A stretch of DNA of 64,000 bases, from assembly GCA_964016885.1 (NCBI GenBank), contig OZ024747.1, positions 91,698,001-91,762,000 of the forward strand, read 5' to 3'. This document shows, piece by piece, positions 3,920 through 55,145 of the stretch (the first letter of the stretch is position 1; every line of letters starts with the position of its first letter). The notes beneath the pieces were generated by a model. The model searched no databases and had not been told where the DNA came from. It was given only the letters and a program-made list of their open reading frames with translations. Source of the DNA: Eledone cirrhosa (taxonomy: Eukaryota). A program made the translations under genes and the position numbers.

Positions 3920-6130
3920 TAAACAGGGAAGGTCAGTAATTTATTACTACCTTATTACCAGCAAGAGAAATACTCAATGTAAGAATATCAGTTGTTTTAC
4001 AGAGCAGTTATATAGAAAACACAAGTATCAAAGTTATGTTTAAAACATTTAATCACTGACAATTGTTTCATCCAAACCTAGGCTTGGAGTTCTCGGAGCA
4101 TTATCAATGTTTGTACATATAATTAACCTACTATTCAACTGAAGAATCATACAGATACATATATATTGATGCTGTGGACAACAGTTTCATGTTTACAGTG
4201 TGAAATGGATGCGACATATATTATACGAGAATTGTACAATAATTCAAATTAAGATTAAAATTTAAATTTAAATTTAAATTTAAATTAAAAGCATAGGGTG
4301 TAATACATGCGTCAGATAATACAGATAATACAAGAGAATAGTCTAATAATTAAATTAGAGAGATAGTACATGCGTTAGTCATATATAAAGGAATGGAACA
4401 AGCAAATGTATCATGCATATCTGAGTACTGTATGGCAGGGTATTACATAAAATACAAGCACTTTAAGCGAATATGTTAGTGTATTATTATGGGTGCAATG
4501 CGAGGATATATTCCGCATAGTTCAAATTTGTATGTGTGTAGAATATGAAAGTTACGGATTTCACATCCATTACTTAAGTTGAGATATATTTGTATTGAAT
4601 GTTTGTTATAGTAATGGATTGTAACTTAGTATTATTTAATCCATATTTATGGATTAGAGTTATTTTACTGAGAGGTTTTTCAACGGTTCAATATCCGGAA
4701 GTGGATATGGAATTAAGGGGAGCTAATGCGTAAGGGGAGGTAACTAGCTCATTATAATAATTAAATTCCTTGCTCTAATAGACATATAGTGCCTCAATTG
4801 AATCCCTTAAATAAAAAGTTATATATTTATATTTTATTTTAAATACAGTCTACTCTCTCATAATATATTAAAGGTTTCATTAGATTGTCGTCTACCCAAT
4901 ATTTGGTAAGATATGGAATAACGTATAGCTGTTTGCATGCTAAATTAGATACATCTCTTGAGTAAATAAATGAATCCTTTATATACAATGTTATTAATTT
5001 ATACATCTAATTATAAATGTATATATAATTCATTGTTTCATATTACATTTAAGTTAGATAAATCCCTTATGTTAATAAATTAATCCTTTATATACAATGT
5101 TATTATTAATTTATACATTTAATTATAAATGTATATATAATTCATTGTTACATTTAATATTTAAAGTTTATATATATTGTATATTGTATATATATATATA
5201 TTTCAATCACTATATAATTATAAGTAATCTAAAGTTATTATATTAAAAGGCGGTGACTATAAGAATATTTCTAGAGTATAAAGTTATAGATAAAAATGAT
5301 TTGTGTAGAGGAAAGGGTGGATCAAAGAGTGTGATGCAGCGGTGAAAGGTAAGTCTTAGAGGTGAAGTGCCAATGGTGGTGATGAGTTAAAATCTGACAT
5401 TGTTATATACTAGCTTTAAAGCTTTGGAATGAATGTCGGAAGCGGTTCTGGCACGATGCAAACACTTCCGATTTTTTATTTAGGAGGTTAAGATTCGAAA
5501 AGATTATAGTATGGGTCTCTAAGAGACAGAGATTACAAAATTTATTAGGTGGTTTATACGATGCAGCCCTACCTACTACTTCCCATTGAAGTTTATATGG
5601 GCTATTCCTAGTTTTCAGATAGTGTATGTAGCTAGATAGTGAAGTGGAGTTGGTTAGCTTGTGTTTTTTGAAAGAGTGGAGGGCGAGTTGTATCTCGTCT
5701 TGAAGCAGTTCGAAGTAGAGCCTATATATATGTTTTAGAAGAATTGTTAGTGTTGAGCCTGCAGGAGTAAATGATGTCCTTGATTAAGCAGTTGTTACCT
5801 AAAGGGCAGGTTCTATTTGATCTACAGTTACATTTATTTTGGATGTTATCTTGTCGTTTATTATGCTGTGTAGAAGTCTGGTTGCTAGGGATAGTATTAG
5901 GGCTATGATGGTTGTCGTTCCTAATGTTATTGATTCCATTAGTGTTATTACTATTATTACTATTGCTATTAGGGTTTGTAGTTATTATGTTGTTCTGAAA
6001 GTTTACCTCCTGCTGTGTTTTAATTTGTTGAAAATAAGTATTAATCTTTCTTTTATTACTACTAGATATATGGTATGCTATGTTAGGTGTGGTAGAGTAA
6101 GAGATTTTAATGGTGTTTTTTATTTATAAG
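3920..6130 (-). mobile_element. Degraded Penelope-like retroelement (Zn-knuckle, GIY-YIG endonuclease, 3' UTR with HHR)
   Basis: Hand translation, minus ~5810-5450 with frameshifts: CPLGNNCLIKDIIY..YIGSTSNCFKTRYN..HSFKKHKLTNSTSLSSYIHYLK..NKKSEVFASC. 3' end homologous to 47050-47300. Confidence 0.8.
4054..4100 (-). ncRNA. Degenerate hammerhead F2
   Basis: GCT-CCGAGAA-CTCCAAGCCTAGGTTTGGAT-GAAA-CAATTG-TC|AGT; core mutated; paralogue at 47078. Confidence 0.5.
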
Positions 6131-6449: not shown

Positions 6450-6925
6450 AGAACCTGGTAAGAAACGTTTCTTTGAGGCTTTCCCGTCTATCTACTAACG
6501 TGCATATTTTCAACGACCATTCCACATATTACAATGAAGCTCTTGCTCGGAGTGGATTTGTCGATAAGGTAGCATATACAGAATACGAGAAGAGACCTAG
6601 GAAAATAGATCCCGACGCATTTTATGGTATAACCCACCATATAATATGGAGGTGGCCACATCATTAGCTAAGATCTTTCTCTCCCTTATTATGAAGCATT
6701 TTCCCCCAACACATAAATATAGTAACATTTTTAATAGAAATACCATTAAAACTTCTTACTCTACGACTCCTAAGCTTGCATATAACATCACAGCTTCAAA
6801 TTTAGCTAAACTACCTAACCGTAGTAACACGTGCAACCCTGTAGCTAGTACTAACTGTAATTGTAGGAATCGGGTTGACTGCCCCCTATTCGGGAAATGC
6901 CTCTCTAGTAACATTGTCTACAATA
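6450..6925 (+). mobile_element. Penelope-like fragment (RT C-terminal/linker to Zn-knuckle)
   Basis: [56 protein letters not shown]; similar to the 54026-55140 element. Confidence 0.85.
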
Positions 6926-9276: not shown

Positions 9277-9338
9277 TATTTTATCTGATGAAAGCGTACC
9301 AAAGTTTTTGGTACCCTTGAAATATATATAATAGAATA
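9277..9338 (+). ncRNA. Canonical minimal type I hammerhead F4
   Basis: TATTTTAT-CTGATGA-AAGCGTACCAAA GTT TTTGGTACCCTT-GAAA-TATATA-TA|ATAGAATA. Confidence 0.8.
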
Positions 9339-12738: not shown

Positions 12739-13410
12739 ATACGTATGTATATACATATATATATATATTTGTATATATATATATATATATATATGTGTAT
12801 ATATATATGTATATATATATATGTGTGTGTATATGTATATATATATATATGTATATATGTATATATATATGTATATATATATGTATATATATATCTATTG
12901 ATACGGTATGTATAAGAAATCCTGTACCATACTCTATACTTCAGTTTAAATATATAAAACATTTTTGGTGTAATCTACCCTCGTAATTTTATACGCAGAA
13001 TTTACTGTGTTTATTTCTACATATATTAATATTATATAATGCTGAGTATTTATACATTGAGCTTGTTAATTGCAAGATATCAATATGAGTTAGTAACTCT
13101 ATATTTTAGTTGTATGTATATATATGTATATATATAGATGTATATATGTATATATATATATATGTATATATGTATATATGTATATGTATATATGTATATA
13201 TGTATATATGTATATATATATATGTATATATGTATATATGTATATATGTATATATAATTTAATTTCGTTTCGTTTTTTGTTTTTATCGTTTCCGCTGAGC
13301 CGGTGCGTACAATGACTCACCTTCTATGCAAATTAGTCTGCCCACTACTAATTTTCATAGAAAAAGCATATAACGATATGTGCTTTTACGATTCTCTAGA
13401 GAAGCCGGAA

Positions 13411-13469
13411 GATGGGTTATTATTGCTGATGAGATGTAATAACATCGAAACTAGTCCAATATTCCTGTC
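13411..13469 (+). ncRNA. Canonical minimal type I hammerhead F6
   Basis: GATGGG..TATTG-CTGATGA-GATGT AATA ACATC-GAAA-CTAG-TC|CAATA..CCTGTC; cleavage after 13456. Confidence 0.9.
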
Positions 13470-13881
13470 TGGCTCTCTGGAGAATAGAGGAAATGTGTTT
13501 CCTTGAAAACCCGTATGACTCTAAAACCCGGTTTGTCTGTTTGGTTACATACAGACTAGCTGGACACTCACAGTAAAGTGTCCAGTGAAAAACTCAGTAC
13601 ATGTACATATGTATACATGTGTGTATTTATATGCATACTAATATTTCCGTATACATATGTAAATGTACACTTTTGACTTAATTGTTTAAGCGTCAGTCAT
13701 ACAAAAGTGAGTTAGAAGCGAAACGAAATTTAATTTCGTTTCGTTATTTGTTTTTATCGTTTCCGCTGAACCGGTGCGTACAATGACTCACCTTCTATGC
13801 AAATTAGTCTGCCCACTACTAATTTTCATAGAAAAAGCATATAACGATATGTGCTTTTACGATTCTCTAGAGAAGCCGGAA

Positions 13882-13940
13882 GATGGGTTATTATTGCTGA
13901 TGAGATGTAATAACATCGAAACTAGTCCAATATTCCTGTC
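13882..13940 (+). ncRNA. Canonical minimal type I hammerhead F6, second copy
   Basis: Identical motif; cleavage after 13927. Confidence 0.9.
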
Positions 13941-14297
13941 TGGCTCTCTGGAGAATAGAGGAAATGTGTTTCCTTGAAAACCCGTATGACGCTAAAACCC
14001 GGTTTGTCTGTTTGGTTACATACAGACTAGCTGGACACTCACAGTAAAGTGTCCAGTGAAAAACTCAGTACATGTACATATGTATACATGTGTGTATTTA
14101 TATGCATACTAATATTTCCGTATACATATGTAAATGTACACTTTTGACTTAATTGTTTATATATATATGTACATATATGTATTTATATATACATATGTAT
14201 ATATGTATATATATGTATATATATGTATATATGTATATATGTATATATATATATATGTAGTAGGTATATATATGTATATGTATATATGTATACATGT

Positions 14298-14341
<44 letters not shown>

Positions 14342-14392
14342 ATATATATATGTATATTTGTATATACAGATATATATGTATATATATATATG

Positions 14393-14432
<40 letters not shown>

Positions 14433-14477
14433 AGTATATATATATGTATATATATGTATATATATATATATATATTG

Positions 14478-14537
<60 letters not shown>

Positions 14538-14730
14538 ATATATATATATGTATATATATGTATATGTATATATATGTATATATGTATATATGTACATATA
14601 TATATATGTATATATATAAAGATTTACATATACACAAACTAGATAAAGTCACAGATATATATGTTTTGGCGAGCATTCACGATGTGGCTTAATGATGAAT
14701 TAATAAATTAAATAATCAGAGCAATACACT

Positions 14731-14779
<49 letters not shown>

Positions 14780-14784
14780 TATTG

Positions 14785-14855
<71 letters not shown>

Positions 14856-14990
14856 ATGTATATATATGTATATATATATATATATACTTATATATATATA
14901 TATACTATTGTATATATATATATATATACTATTGTATATATATATATATATATTTGTATGTATATATATGTATATATATATATATATACT

Positions 14991-15043
<53 letters not shown>

Positions 15044-15050
15044 ATGTATA

Positions 15051-16130
<1,080 letters not shown>

Positions 16131-20602: not shown

Positions 20603-20671
20603 GTTTTATCTGATGAAAACACAAATATTATTGCATGATGATGTTTGTTTTTGAAATGCGCATAATAAAAT
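20603..20671 (+). ncRNA. Canonical type I hammerhead F9
   Basis: GTTTTAT-CTGATGA-AAACACAAATATTATT..GATGATGTTTGTTTTT-GAAA-TGCGCA-TA|ATAAAAT. Confidence 0.85.
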
Positions 20672-20987: not shown

Positions 20988-21770
20988 TCATCATCATCAT
21001 CATCACCGTTTTACGTCCGTTCTTCCACGCTGGCATGGGTTAGACGGGTTGTCCTGTTGTGGGCAGTGTCTGGTCGGCTGACCATGCCTTGCTCATACAG
21101 GAACTGATTTGGTTTAATTTCTACAGCTGGATGCCCTTCTTAACACCAACCTCATTAACAGTGAATGCTGGGTGCTTTTTCGTGGCGCCTACACGTCCAC
21201 TTTACAGTGTGGGCTGGGTGCTTTTTTGCCGTGGCACCTCCACGACCACCTTGCAGTGGGTGGTGTGGGGCATATTGTCTATATGCTTCAGCTTGTACCC
21301 ATGGGAGGTCGGGTACTCTGTATTACTGCGTGACGCCAGAGGTCACGGTGTGTGTCATCGCCTTTGAGAGGTGTAATTGGATAAGGTCGGCTTTTATCAC
21401 CTCATCCCAGGTCATCTTGGGTCTCCCCACTCCGCGGTTTCCATCGATTTCTAGTGATCTGCACCTTTTTATGCAGCTGTCATCCTTCATACGCATCACA
21501 TGGCCATACCAGCGCAACCGCCTCTCCTGCACACAGCATTTGATTCCTCTTATGCTCAGTCTCTCTCTCAATTCATTTATGCTTTGTCGTTCGCGTATAT
21601 TACTGTTACACATCCATCGGAGCATGCAAGCTTCGTTTCTCTCTAATCTACGTAAGTCTTCCACCTTCAGCGCCCAGGTCTCACTACCATGCAACATCGC
21701 TGTTCGTATACACGCATCATACAGTCTGCCTTTCATTTTGAGGGAGAAGCCTTTTGCAGCTAGCATTGGT
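20988..21770 (-). mobile_element. RTE-clade LINE 3' end with 3' UTR and (GAT)n tail
   Basis: KGRLYDACIRTAMLHGSETWAL..RRLRWYGHVMRM..GRPKMTW. Confidence 0.9.
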
Positions 21771-21804
21771 AGTATATATAGTATATATATATTGGCAGCG
21801 GTAG

Positions 21805-21848
<44 letters not shown>

Positions 21849-21850
<2 letters not shown>

Positions 21851-22165
21851 GTAATAATAATAAATTTGAAGACTAAAATCCAAAGAGGGCTCGATAAGTA
21901 TAAATATATATCAAATATATAAGAACCGTAGAGCAAATATTTATTAAAATAACAGATTAAAGTTTAAGCAAAGAATCGCTGCTTTCACCCTTAACGGGAT
22001 CTTCTGAAACTAAAAAAATCAATCTGTGAACGCAGAAGTAAATATTTCGAAAAATGTTGCAACCGGAGGAAGACAGGAAGACGATTGATTTTTTTAGTTT
22101 CAGAAGATCCCGTTAAGGGTGAAAGCAGCGATTCTTTGATTAAACTTTAATCTGTTATTTTAATA
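21849..22165. mobile_element. Head-to-head pair of F3 PLE termini, each with a hammerhead fold (21953-22026 minus; 22083-22154 plus)
   Basis: Matches 6220-6305 in both orientations; the minus copy extends ~95 nt beyond AATAAA. Confidence 0.75.
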
Positions 22166-31456: not shown

Positions 31457-31826
31457 ATATACGATATTAACAAATGGAAACTATATTTATAAAACCATAT
31501 CTATTTTATTATACATATTTCAAGGATACCATGTTAAATTATGGTATGCTTTCATCAGACAAAATACAATATATACCAGTTTTATAAATAAATATTGACA
31601 TACCCTTTCAAAATGCAACCGTTACTTTTGGAAGACATCAGGATATCCCGATGTCTTCCAAAAGTAACGGTTGCATTTTGAAAGGGTATGTCAATATTTA
31701 TTTATAAAACTGGTATATATTGTATTTTGTCTGATGAAAGCATACCATAATTTAACATGGTATCCTTGAAATATGTATAATAAAATAGATATGGTTTTAT
31801 AAATATAGTTTCCATTTGTTAATATC

Positions 31827-41309: not shown

Positions 41310-42600
41310 AATATCCACAGTTAGTTATGGGGGTCTAGTCTGCATGAAGACCTCAATGTAATCCATATGTTGACAATGTTGTGGGTTAAAATAAATCCCG
41401 GAAAACAAAAAAATCATCGAAAGGAAAACAGAGTCATGATATAAGTTAAAAGAATGAAATAAAAATTTAAGTCATTAGGAAAATACTTCACTGCTTTACG
41501 ATCGTTTCTAGGTGATAATAATACATCGTACGCATATTTCGTTATCGTTCTATGTAAGGTTAGTTATAAAATATCAGATAAGGAGAATATTTACCTACTT
41601 GTATCAGCTGTTGTCAAAAGCAATGATAATTTTATTCAGTATCAGTAGTAAATTGGGTTTAGTGACCTTATTTGGAGGCTGCTAAAGAATAAACCAATGA
41701 AATGGTATTTTGCCAAATAATGTTAAGACGAAATAAAACCCACTCTAGCTAAGGTCACGACTTCTTTAAAGGAAGGTTGAAAGGTGTTAAAAATAGAATT
41801 ACTTATAGAGAAAGGGGATAGTGGATTGCAGTTGGTGTAGTGAAATTTAAAAAAAATTTATGTTGAGTTGTGTTGAATGGAATTTTTTAAGTGAATATAA
41901 ATAAAGAAATATGAGATACACGGAAATAACTAGAATAAATATAGATAGGTAAGTTAATGGTCATAATTAGGAAGGATAGTATATTAAAATATTAAAATAA
42001 TAAGATAATTAAATACAATAATATATTAATATAATATAATGTAATAAAATAGTCAGTAACACATGAATCTATGGAAACTAAAAAATTAAAAGGTTAAAAG
42101 ATTTTAGAAGAAAGGGATATTAATAAAAAGGTTCGTCACATAGAACTATAGTGAACGGTTATCTAGAATGTTTAGTTAGGTTTATAGTATTTAAATGTTT
42201 TTCGTATACGGTGATTACAAATTATAATCAATTCTTGTCGTTTATTCAATAAATCGTCTTTAGATTGAGTAATTTCCAAGATCTCACCGGAACATAATCT
42301 GCATTCTCTCCTGTTCCCAAGATATGGAGTTCTTTGCAGAATGGTATTCCGCGATAGTTTGAAATCTATTCCTTCCTTTTTATAGTGATTTCAGCTAAGG
42401 ATGTGGTGTTAGCTAGCTTAGTATTGTTAAAGCTACTGGAGTGTGCGTAATATATTTTCTTAAATGTGTTCGATATAGATCCTATATACGATTTGTTGGA
42501 GTTATTAGTAGACACAGTGCATTTATATATTACATTATTAATCAAACAGTTGCCATTTAAGGTGCAAGTGCTTCTATTTCTATTATGTATGGGTGTATTT

Positions 42601-49097: not shown

Positions 49098-49344
49098 CAT
49101 GCCCTGGAAATACTATACGCCACAGACCACATCTTAAACAAAAAATCTGAGGCAATTTCGGCTTGTAAACATAAATTGCACAAAACTTTCCTGTATTACA
49201 GCCCCACGTTATACCCTAGCGGATAGTACGATCTATACGTGGATATTTTACGTCTTGATGTGGGAGCTAAGTATATGTAGCAACAACGGCGGTGCCCCAG
49301 CATGGCCTCAGCCGGATGGCTGTAACAGGTAAAAGAATAATATA

Positions 49345-51945
49345 TATATAAAAAACAGTAGTGGTCCCAGGACTGTCCCTTGGGGCACCCCACTTGTTAT
49401 TGATGTTTCCTTTGAGAGGGCCCCGTTTGCTGCGACTGTCTGGCTTCTGTCCTTTAAGAAGTCATGCAGCCAATCACCTACTTTTCCTGTTATGCCGAGA
49501 CTGTGTCGTTTGTGACATATCATTCTGTGGTCGACCTTGTCAAAGGCCTTCGCAAAGTCAAGATATATCACGTCCACATGTGAGCAGTCTAGCAGTTGTT
49601 TCAGTACCCAGTCGTAGTGAAGTAGCAGCTGTGTAAGGCAGCTTCTTGCTGGGCGGAAGCCATGCTGCGTGCTAGTCAGGCGGTCATTTTCCTCGAGGAA
49701 AGTGATCAGTTTCTTTCTGACGATTCGCTCCATGACCTTACTGATATGCGACGTCAGGGAGACTCGCCTATAGTTTTTGGCCTCCGCTCTGCTACCTCCT
49801 TTATGGATAGGGCATATTATGCCTTCTTTCAGCTCCCTCGGTAGTATACCGCTAGCCAAGGAGCTTCTGAAGAGCGTCTTCAGTGGAGTTGATAAGGCCC
49901 GCTTACATGTTTTTAAGAGGACTGCTGGGAATACATCAGGTTCAGCAGTTGAGTCTGTTCTAATTTCATCTATGGCGTATACCACATCCTCCTCCGTTAT
50001 GTCTATGTGGTTGATGGTCACCATTTCTTCATGTAATGTTGTGGCATCAAAGAACTCCTCTGTCTTTGTTACTTGAATGTGCCTCAGTGGACATGTGAAC
50101 ACACTTTTGTACTGTTCGTTCAGTATTTCACATATCTCTTGGGGATTCTCGGTTTATGAATCGTCTGTATGGAAGAGTGGCCCAATCTTGCAGTGTACCG
50201 AGGCAGTTTCTTTTGCAAATTTAAAGAAGGCCTTAGGGTTTGTTTTTATATTTTCTATGGCCCTGCTTTCTTTCTTTGCCCTCTCATTTTCATGGGAAAG
50301 TTTGAGTGCAATCTCGGTGTCAAGTAGTGCACGTTTCAAATAGGATTCCTTCTTGCTTTTGTTTTCTTGTGCATTCAACTGGTTTGAGGGCTTGGTTCTA
50401 CGTCTCATAAGATTTTCCTATCTCTGGGAATAAGATTTTTGTGTCTGTTTGCCTTTTTCTCTGGGACAAACCTTTTGCATATAGTGTGTATCGTTGTCAT
50501 GAAGTGTTGAAATTGTGTGTTGGTGTCTTGTGTGGCGGTGTTTTCGCTCCATATTTGCTTCCGGATTTCTCTCTTGATCTTTTTCCAGTTAGCCTTGTAG
50601 AAGTTAAGGCTGGATAACGTCCCGGTGCTTCTTGATGGTCGTGTCTCCGTTGGTTCTCTCGGACAACATATCATTAGCTCTACTAAGTTATGATCCGAGA
50701 GAATTGTTGGTGTCACCTTACATTTTGGATGAGCAGTTCGTTGTTTGTAAAACAGAGGTCCAGGACATTTTCGCCACTTGTTGGGAGGACTACTGTTTAT
50801 TCCATGAACAGCCTGTCTGTGAGGGCCAGCAGGGATTCCGTCTGTCTATGTTCTATTGACGTCATTCCAGGGACGAGGTGGCCCTCAGGCCATTTGACCT
50901 TTGGCAGGTTGAAGTCTCCCAGCGTTAGAATGTGGAGACCCTGGTCCAGTTTGTCAAGTACCTCTTCTATCCTACTGAGGCTATCCTCAAATTTACCCTC
51001 ATGACTGGTGGCATCGGGCGGCCGATATGTGACACATATTACTGTCTTTAGTTGCTTCTTACGTACTATCAGTGTGTCACAGACTGAGTTTGAATGTCAA
51101 CAGTACAATTGGGAGTACATCTTCACGGATATACAGAGCAACCCCACCATGAGTTCTCTCCTTTCTGTCCGAACGAAATAGAATATATTTCGGTATATGT
51201 ATTTCTGCATCTGCTATACTGCTTGTCAGGTGCGTTTCGGTTAGTGCCATGCAAAATGCTTGATTGCTTATGGCTAATTCTCCCAGGTAAGACATTTTAT
51301 TTATGTTAGTGAGTTTCACCAGGCTTCTGACATTCAGCAGCAGCACTGGTGTGACTTTTGGGGTGCCAGCAATGGTTGTCGGTATGACACCTGGCCTAGT
51401 GTCAGTGGCGCCAGTCTGGGTCCCTTAATTGTGGTGGTCTCGAGTGCTGGTGTGGGTAACCCTGGCTCTAAAAACGATGCAGCCAGGTCAGCTGTCGCAC
51501 AATCTTCTCTGCCATCACTGAAAACATGTTCTGCTCTGCTGCTGCCATCTGTATCTCGTCCTTGTTGGAGCGGCACGCGAGACATCAGCATACTTCTGGA
51601 GCGGCTTGTTTGGGCTTTGGCTGGATCATGTTGCGCGAGTAGGATGGGCATAGTTCGTTTGGGGCCTGGAGTGGGCGAATCTGCAGCCCATCCCTGTCTC
51701 TCCATGCCAGCATGTCCCGTTCCTGAAGAACTTGCACCTTATTTGGGTTTTCTTGCTCCCAGTGTGTCGGTGCTTTCTGTTCTTCCCCTGGACAGTTATC
51801 CACTGGTCCCTCTGCGCTTGGTTCTCCTTCGGAATTTCTCCTTCGGTGATTTCCCTTCTCACCTTTACCGTTTGCTTGTTGGTTGCCCGGCCTGCCCTTC
51901 CTGACTGTGACGGCGGGTATCTCATTTTCTTTAAGGTCCGTATAT
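49345..51945 (-). mobile_element. CR1-group LINE, disrupted: ORF1 remnant (CCCH finger), APE endonuclease, N-terminal half of RT
   Basis: [17 protein letters not shown]; LNVRSL..ALTETHL..RSDR..GGVALYI; LSDHNLV; YRRVSLTS..QHGFR..YLDFAKAFDKVDH..GVPQGTVLGPLLF. Confidence 0.95.
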
Positions 51946-53792: not shown

Positions 53793-53819
53793 ATATATAT
53801 ATATATATGCATATGTATC

Positions 53820-55145
53820 TAGTGGTAGAACACTGGAAGGTAATATCCGTAGTAGTAGAGCACTCAGTCCATGGGACAAGTTAGGTAGAAGTGGTAACTC
53901 AACAGTTAGTTCACCATACCGAGATCAATTGTTTCACCTTATCGGATCCTCAGCTTGTAATGGGCATGGTTATACGGAACAGGAAGGACAACAGTACGAA
54001 CGCGCATGCGCAGAAACTGGTCACTTCACACAGGCAATACTAAAATGCGTGCGAGAGGTGTAAGGGGGATAATTGCGAAATTCCGAAAAGTTTTTAGTTG
54101 ATAAGAAAAAATATTGTTGTTGTTACAATATTTCAATTGATCCGGTGCTTTGTAGTTATGCAATATGTGTTTCGAAATGTGTGGACAACGTGTGAAAAAT
54201 TCATTTCTCGTGTTTAGGCAATCACTATTGCATAAACTCATTAGAATCTTTATTCGTTCGTCAATACACATTCCACACAACGGATTTCCCCTTGCGTATG
54301 GCTTGGACTTAGTGATGGCTTTCCATTGAATGGAGTAGTCTATACTTGAGTCCTTGAGGGACCAAACGTGGCTCGTGAGTTTCGTGGATAAACGTCTGTC
54401 TGGGTACCTAAAGGTCGGCTGATGGTTCAGGAAACGTTCCTTAAATCGGCACTCCGCCATGCCCACATAGGATTTGACCTTCTGTGGTTGGTTTGGTCGT
54501 AAAATACAGCTGGTGTGTTGCATTGCTGTTGAAGGGGCAAGCTTCGGGCTTACGACAAGAGCACCCTGGTGGGGTGTTGCTCCTAGGGTTGCTGGTGATG
54601 TGGGCCTTCATGTTCTTAGCGCAAGAGTATCCTAGTTTAACTTTGTGTCGGTTAAAGATGGAGTGGTATTTATGACCTATGGGAAAGTGTCTATCTAAGA
54701 GGTTTTGCCTACATTGGTTTTAACGTTGAGTGAGAAGGGAGGAGAGAACCAGATAGTTTGTTTATTGTTGCGCTTTCTTTTCTTATTGCTGTTGTTGATA
54801 GTGGGAGAGTAAGTGATAGGTTTTGAGAAGCCGGTGTTAGCTAACGCCGTGTTATAGTATGGTGCCGCCCTGTCAAAGATAGCCTTATTAGAGGAGAGGT
54901 TTAAGATTCTAGTACTGATATTATTTACGAAGTTTCTAAAAACAATGGGAGGGTGGCATAAGTCCTTGTGAATGAAATTGCGTTTTTCGTTTAGCTTATG
55001 GAAGGATCTGTGGGTGTGTGTGCGAAGGTCGAAATTAATGTCTAAGAAATCTACGCTAGAGAGGTTGGTAGCTACTGTTATACTAAGTCCTAACTCATTG
55101 AAGGTAGAAGCTAAGTCTTTTTAAAAACCGGTGGAGGTCGTGACC
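53820..55145 (-). mobile_element. Penelope/Poseidon-like element, 5' truncated (RT C-terminus, Zn-knuckle, GIY-YIG)
   Basis: VDFLDINFDL..HPP..IWFSPPFS..IFNRHKVKLGYSC..CSCRKPEACP..SYVGMAECRFKERFLNH..LCGMCIDE..LNTRNEFFTRCPH. Confidence 0.92.
53917..53959 (-). ncRNA. Degenerate hammerhead F12, ~70 nt after the PLE stop codon
   Basis: CAAG-CTGAGGA-TCC GATAA GGT-GAAA-CAATTG-AT-CTCG; U16.1 appears mutated. Confidence 0.6.

Follow-up and report, generated by a model that had tools for sequence, protein, structure and literature searches.

What kind of element is the short tandem repeat that lies between two (TA)n tracts in the genome of Eledone cirrhosa, which form of its RNA was copied into DNA, and by what enzyme? 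The repeat is found in a stretch of 64,000 nucleotides (GCA_964016885.1, contig OZ024747.1, positions 91,698,001 to 91,762,000, hereafter the window). An earlier note had proposed it as a young nonautonomous element whose two hammerheads excise a 471-nt RNA that is then circularized.

The insertion is a noncoding tandem of 1.92 units

A repeat search of the window returned a 471-bp tandem at 13256-14159 (1.9 copies, 99% matches). The insertion consists of 1.92 head-to-tail copies of a 471-bp noncoding unit and is bounded by a (TA)n tract on each side. Its parts are as follows.

13113..13256, strand not assigned: (TA)n target microsatellite, left flank
13256..14159, + strand: one-armed insertion, 1.92 units of the 471-bp retrozyme
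13457..13927, + strand: predicted 471-nt monomer or circle
13559..13586, + strand: CUGGACACU/AGUGUCCAG hairpin, folding z -4.3
13598..13667, + strand: TA-like long hairpin
14158..15155, strand not assigned: (TA)n target microsatellite, right flank

The near identity of the repeats, the lack of a credible open reading frame and the hairpin at 13559-13586, all claimed in the earlier note, were confirmed: 3 of the 432 positions that both units share are different, the longest stop-to-stop frame within the repeat has 88 aa, and the hairpin folds as listed. The repeat contains no open frame with reverse transcriptase (RT) and GIY-YIG domains and is not an autonomous Penelope-like element (PLE). A pattern search of the unit for internal A and B boxes, with box patterns from general knowledge, and for AATAAA found none.

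The monomer folds more stably than its shuffled versions (z = -11.2), and about 68% of its nucleotides are paired when it is folded as a circle. The counterpart of the 13598..13667 hairpin in a sister family (listed as 70% diverged) encloses a true (TA)n tract. Elsewhere in the window, fragments of LINE-type RT frames were identified by eye at 149-847, 14712-15659, 21323-21910, and 49308-50153.

Both units carry a canonical type I hammerhead

13426..13456, + strand: type I hammerhead core 1, predicted cut after 13456
13897..13927, + strand: type I hammerhead core 2, predicted cut after 13927
13392..13484, + strand: extended stem I around hammerhead 1, folding z -5.1

Both cores read CUGAUGA, a stem II of GAUGU-aaua-ACAUC, GAA, ACUAGU, and C. 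Stem I is UAUUG/CAAUA, stems I and II have 5 bp each, and the ACUAGU of stem III is palindromic. The canonical cores, the cut sites 471 nt apart, the palindrome and the extended stem I of the earlier note were thus all recovered, the first three in both units. A hammerhead descriptor matched 2 of 2 units in the window and had no match in any of 30 Markov-shuffled windows. Rfam gave 0 matches in the window at the gathering score; its HH9 model scored both cores at 28.4 bits, below the cut-off of 52. Sub-threshold Rfam matches to miRNAs were rejected, as they come from TA-like sequence.

The note had called these hammerheads minimal and perfect. The first label is wrong by the definitions of PMC4209133, which assign a helix III of 2 bp and a palindromic loop to the canonical type I form of metazoans, not to the "min-HHR." The second needs correcting for stem I, where the variant of the window copy lets an isolated 52-nt core misfold. 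In folding of a 106-nt context, stems I and II were restored.

Cleavage would be the weakest link of the mechanism proposed below. Nearest-neighbor folding of a 13380-13960 transcript gave the cross-unit stem III a share of about 1%, which is no evidence either way because such models do not score hammerheads. Since only 1 of 9 Xenopus dimers was cleaved (bioRxiv 2026.07.22.740005), dimer cleavage is not guaranteed for the predicted hammerheads of the window copy.

Five more type I hammerhead-like motifs, from other families and with an 8-nt palindromic stem III, are present in the window; two of the sets are head-to-head pairs.

9285-9330, + strand: other-family hammerhead-like motif
19721-19667 (- strand) with 20610-20664 (+ strand): other-family motif pair
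31558-31510 (- strand) with 31731-31779 (+ strand): other-family motif pair

A dispersed family with a conserved structure

The note had asked for the copy number in the genome, and searches of the 3.0-Gb genome put it in the thousands of units. The exact 32-nt core had 1453 matches, the core with a free stem II had 3337, and 2173 B ends (see below) were joined to (TA)n; reversed-pattern controls gave 0 in each case. As is characteristic of retrozymes, the family is dispersed, multicopy and low in GC. It comprises several subfamilies, 5-13% apart, that evolved as closed units. Two insertions (L007 and L049) show no differences within or between them, which indicates recent activity of the family.

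Across 29 monomers, none of the 11 positions of the hammerhead core was variable. The most conserved part of the unit runs from position 420 to position 30, with 3 of 82 variable positions versus 85 of 389 elsewhere (p 3e-5). In the conserved structure, 99.1% of cells were paired, and both sides had changed in six base pairs, of which one, in stem II, was changed in 10 of the 29 sequences, with the structure derived from the same alignment and the sequences related.

The only relatives of the unit that we found form a noncoding sister family of about 70% identity and similar layout. One of its loci (L098, G000:C1:36891000-36899000) has a (TA)n tract inside the unit; this tract was apparently the target of a third hammerhead family, whose unit is shorter and which forms a two-armed array there. 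Two insertions that belong to different subfamilies (98% and 86%) meet tail to tail at another locus (L116, G000:C1:67842000-67848000), and unit position 19 is the end of both.

Insertions end at two fixed sites, mostly one of each in two-armed copies

13683..13688, + strand: site A, internal copy (unit 427-432), putative reverse-transcription start
13689..13757, + strand: Penelope-type "tail," site A to site B (unit 433 to 30)
14154..14159, + strand: insertion 3' end at site A, joined to (TA)n

The 3' ends of the insertions fall at two places, A (unit 427-433) and B (unit 27-31), which are 69-74 nt apart. The stretch between them, the tail, contains a hairpin of 13 bp and, at 13751-13755, a run of T5. 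We compiled by hand the ends of 68 insertions, leaving aside duplicate loci, sister-family loci, two fragments of <45 nt and one locus (L108) that would count as B plus other. Among their 112 arms, 53 ended at A, 54 at B and 5 elsewhere, and the 5' ends were scattered. Forty-four insertions had two arms in head-to-head orientation: 39 combined A with B, none was A+A or B+B, and 5 had one odd end. Another 57 loci were picked solely for having a B end; their far end was A in 37 cases, undetected in 20 and B in none, and some second arms are just 10-20 nt long. The window copy is a single A arm: its 3' end is at site A, and its 5' truncation lies at the tail hairpin's apex.

A 3' end fixed in position and tailed on one side only, a 5' end that varies and an inverted, 5'-truncated copy are the features of PLE insertions, whose published structure has an inverted truncated copy, a one-sided tail and a bias to (TA)n (PMC8557442). 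In the anole PLE, the tail is defined by two internal RT starts (PMC11167929). The tail of 69-74 nt differs in length from the 30-40 nt of PLEs. Strict pairing of one A with one B is not stated for PLEs in the available text of PMC8557442, PMC11167929, and PMC4209133, and for the anole PLE in vitro the start site showed no strand difference (Frangieh 2024, PMC11167929).

The insertions retain probable traces of an edited RNA copied repeatedly

In a sample that was not chosen by the hammerhead, 61 of 84 arms crossed at least one cut site and 27 crossed two or more. The spacing at the cut was exact in 190 of 191 passes. We then scored lineage-specific variants in 131 short insertions, without duplicates and long arrays, as either fixed in every pass or present in a single pass. 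On the hammerhead strand, A>G made up 25 of 74 pass-fixed variants versus 44 of 442 single-pass variants (p 6e-7); the ratio of A>G to T>C was 25:10 in the former and 44:52 in the latter. ADAR avoids adenosines that follow a G, and none of the 25 pass-fixed A>G changes did so (p 0.005). This pattern of excess, strand bias and neighbor is the signature of ADAR. The edit-like changes recur at the same site in every pass and in both arms of an insertion (e.g., L270, L044, and L279), and for 19 of the 25 the site was changed in a single insertion. The two fixed variants of the window copy itself, G>C and G>A, are not edits.

A change made in RNA and repeated in every pass and in both arms is the trace to be expected if one edited monomer was copied over and over; the excess of pass-fixed A>G points to a circle. 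Divergence within insertions, again without duplicates and long arrays, was also considered and rejected as uninformative: it was below the divergence from the nearest other insertion in 41 of 70 cases (p 0.11), which is not a clear difference.

The same Penelope-type mobilization could have used as its template an uncleaved, linear transcript of several units, with a weak or vestigial hammerhead and no circle. Seamless reading through the cut sites fits such a template equally well, and long source arrays exist. Hammerhead mutants had no effect on insertion of the anole PLE in vitro, where uncleaved RNA was inserted equally well (PMC11167929), and 8 of 9 Xenopus dimers stayed uncleaved (bioRxiv 2026.07.22.740005). 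However, a multiunit template would need the same rare edit in each of its units, at sites of which 19 of 25 are peculiar to one insertion. The invariant core and the covarying stem II argue for a hammerhead under constraint, and in the longest array the units are on average about 13 changes apart, a distance that most short insertions do not reach. We consider this template improbable.

A cleaved linear monomer would explain the pass-fixed edits as well as a circle does, provided that the enzyme made tandem arms by jumping, on one and the same RNA, from its 5' end to its 3' end. The junction is free of scars in 190 of 191 passes. Nor do 5' ends pile up at the exact cut (3 versus 2.6 expected in the 68-insertion table; 2 versus 1.0 in a second sample). 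In the 30 nt 3' of the cut, 5' ends are mildly overrepresented (14 versus 6.8 expected; 9 versus 5.1, p 0.07), which would fit some linear templates; stalling at a hairpin could equally produce this, and hairpins elsewhere in the unit have similar excesses. No pile-up was seen at the predicted transcription start either (0 versus 1.7). The jump model, in a seamless form, keeps a low probability, and a circular template remains our preferred reading.

The partner enzyme is likely of the Neptune type

Two coding PLE families of the Neptune type in this genome have paired ends, about 66 nt and 89 nt apart, in (TA)n, the target that they share with the retrozyme family. "Neptune type" here denotes motifs read by eye (a CxCxxxxxC linker plus a GIY-YIG-like domain at the C terminus) and compared with the descriptions in PMC8557442; a Pfam search of the peptides gave no match at threshold. 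In the second of these families, A was combined with B in 7 of 7 loci that had two TA-abutting ends on opposite strands. It has an open frame of 713 aa at four places (L160/L168 at G000:C5:133.506-133.509 Mb and others). The 713-aa family is apparently intact, and its hammerhead-like motif has a changed core. The window itself contains fragments of at least four Neptune-type families, at 53810-54760 (-), 6601-6918 (+), 5406-5726 (-), and 42178-42381 (-); the 3' untranslated region (UTR) of the first contains a hammerhead-like motif, and this fragment ends at (TA)n.

From the insertion footprint alone, the partner of the retrozyme is likely to be a Neptune-type Penelope enzyme. In searches that scored the best 150 of some 45-49 thousand candidates, none of the roughly ten Neptune-like families seen in the fetched loci (the two above and about eight glimpsed when the flanks were screened for PLE coding sequence) had a pLTR resembling the unit. 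Twenty stretches between or behind A and B ends contained no coding partner, and there was no open reading frame of >=150 aa inside insertions of the family.

These searches also bear on the idea that the units are 3' stubs, that is, pLTR partial tandems, of a coding Penelope element. The end signature is indeed that of the coding Neptune families. However, in the mapped insertions, including the 20 stretches above, units follow one another head to tail and are not separated by coding sequence, and the several subfamilies evolved as closed units. This idea is largely refuted and has very little probability left.

A long array grew at the DNA level

Array lengths, which the note had wanted checked, reach 138 units; the window copy has 1.92. 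The longest array (66 kb, G000:C1 ~95.621-95.687 Mb; L064-L067 and L112-L115) retains the A and B ends of a single insertion in (TA)n. It contains higher-order repeats of 5-7 units and therefore grew at the DNA level and is not a measure of rolling-circle length; a single rolling-circle product was rejected as the origin of long arrays for this reason. The array is a satellite born from one retrozyme copy. Such block duplication is what an ordinary satellite with a chance hammerhead match would show, and for the dispersed copies that account is refuted, with next to no probability, by thousands of insertions whose 3' ends are fixed, whose 5' ends vary and which include inversions, by the strand-asymmetric A>G and by the 0 of 30 shuffled windows matched by the descriptor.

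The unit contains a candidate U6-type promoter

13325..13343, + strand: U6-type (Pol III type 3) upstream element, copy 1, putative promoter
13368..13373, + strand: TATA-like ATATAA, predicted start about 13402-13404
13796..13814, + strand: U6-type upstream element, copy 2, inside the predicted circle

The promoters of host small RNAs were derived from the genome's own genes, with loci L182-L227 and L234 compared against L202-L204, L228, and L252. Three U6 loci, one U6atac locus and MRP have TATG[CG][AT]AAT[TG]AG at -77 to -79 and a TATA box at -30; MRP, which was held out of training, has the element at -78. The element was not at that place in ten upstream regions of U1, U2, and RNase P. It was also absent from two U6 array copies with different upstream sequence, from 5 other U6atac loci and from 17 further U6 or U6atac matches. 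Some U6 array copies on C19 have a different upstream sequence. Host snRNA genes of the Pol II type share TCA[GA]T with RNase P at about -57 (-66 in RNase P), and Pol III type 3 genes have a different element, at -78. The predicted U6 proximal sequence element of Schistosoma japonicum is similar (PMC5460494).

The element of the unit scored 23.2 bits, within the range of the host training sites (19.3-23.6), and was equaled by 0 of 2000 nulls, also when the closest U6 was left out. It shares 15 exact bases with one U6 promoter. The exact 11-mer was found in 349 of 420 sampled units, and 6968 U6-type upstream elements were counted genome-wide versus 9 in the reversed-pattern control. At unit 69-80 lies an octamer-like motif that the sister family has retained. 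The element is absent from the third retrozyme family, from both Neptune UTRs and from the other hammerhead elements of the window.

Other features speak for caution. The TATA-like box lies 43-44 nt from the start of the element (43-45 nt in the sister family) versus 47-49 nt in host genes, so the host spacing is not reproduced; in insects, the spacing between the two is tightly conserved (PMC1761439). Between the predicted start and the second hammerhead there are four runs of T4 or T5, one of them right at site B, and a Pol III transcript would need to read through them. The element is also the 5' strand of a hairpin, and a role of that hairpin could explain its conservation. Taking the match and these features together, we only tentatively suggest that the candidate works as a portable Pol III promoter, and we are somewhat doubtful of it.

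DISCUSSION

On all features testable here, the window element is a non-LTR retrozyme, and it works like an element mobilized by PLEs. The description of it as young and nonautonomous in the earlier note has held up, given the copy number, the near-identical copies, the conserved and covarying structure and the traces of an edited, repeatedly copied RNA. Neither the two-end, Penelope-like insertion footprint nor the U6-type element appears in the note. We think it quite probable that this is a young, protein-free family whose hammerhead RNA of 471 nt is excised and circularized and that a borrowed Penelope enzyme of the Neptune type copies it into (TA)n from two fixed internal starting sites.

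In the mechanism we propose, an array would be transcribed on the hammerhead strand, possibly from the U6-type element of the unit. Neighboring hammerheads would pair through the ACUAGU palindrome and release a monomer, which a host ligase of the RtcB type would close, as this ligase does in vitro for axolotl and mussel retrozymes (PMC7229834). The largely double-stranded RNA may be edited by ADAR. A Penelope protein would bind the tail, nick both strands of (TA)n, and prime one at A and the other at B; each RT would circle the template over a distance that varies, after which both cDNA ends would be joined head to head. In the window copy, the B arm is absent or nearly nil. Some arrays would later expand as DNA satellites.

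Known metazoan non-LTR retrozymes of corals, mussels, and axolotl resemble the family in having noncoding units in tandem, each with a single type I hammerhead, a low GC content, a highly paired monomer and co-occurrence with PLEs (PMC7229834; bioRxiv 10.64898/2026.07.22.740005). A unit of 471 bp is within the range of 51-972 bp given by Li et al. 2026 and just above the 150-450 bp of Cervera and de la Pena 2020 (PMC7229834). Fixed A and B ends, head-to-head arms, (TA)n targeting, editing fossils and a promoter set the family apart from the accounts in the available text of these two sources, in which expression as circles was shown for the known retrozymes, whereas for this family it is inferred. 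The link between retrozymes and PLEs was drawn from pLTR homology by Li, Clavereau and Pollet 2026; here it is drawn from the insertion footprint, with no homologous pLTR found among the roughly ten families seen.

The family also shares with EN+ PLEs of the Neptune type 5'-truncated partial tandems, the inverted 5'-truncated copy, a tail at one end, the (TA)n preference, a hammerhead and two internal RT starts (PMC8557442, PMC11167929, PMC4209133). Unlike them, it has no open reading frame. Hammerhead tandem repeats with a small-RNA-type promoter of their own are newt satellite 2 (snRNA-type promoter, Pol II) and, with a Pol III promoter, the schistosome hammerhead satellite (as cited in PMC2220036). 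By analogy, newt satellite 2 sets a precedent for hammerhead repeats that have an snRNA-type promoter. Unlike in those satellites, the candidate element here matches host U6, U6atac, and MRP, not U1, U2, or RNase P.

The retrozyme itself is of a known kind, and the match to a U6-type promoter is the new part. In the literature that we searched, mostly open access and without supplements, we found neither A/B pairing nor editing fossils nor a promoter of the U6 type described for any retrozyme. The fullest version of our proposal, that the retrozyme carries a working U6-type promoter and that its edited circle is written into both strands of (TA)n by one Penelope complex, A on one strand and B on the other, is speculative and unlikely to hold in every part. 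If it did, hammerhead excision would place the promoter of the next unit inside the RNA circle, so that a promoter that otherwise lies upstream of the transcript, and is normally lost on retrotransposition, would be kept; every insertion longer than one unit would be a new, self-transcribing source.

The available text of PMC7229834 and bioRxiv 2026.07.22.740005 leaves open two questions: the way in which retrozymes of animals are transcribed, and whether Penelope enzymes use a circle as their template. The family provides genomic evidence for an edited RNA that was copied repeatedly, and its strand-pairing rule can be tested in the existing in vitro assay for PLEs. A consensus for the U6 promoter of the host is a by-product. 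The family shows a satellite born from a single insertion, and its candidate promoter would explain how each new insertion becomes a source.
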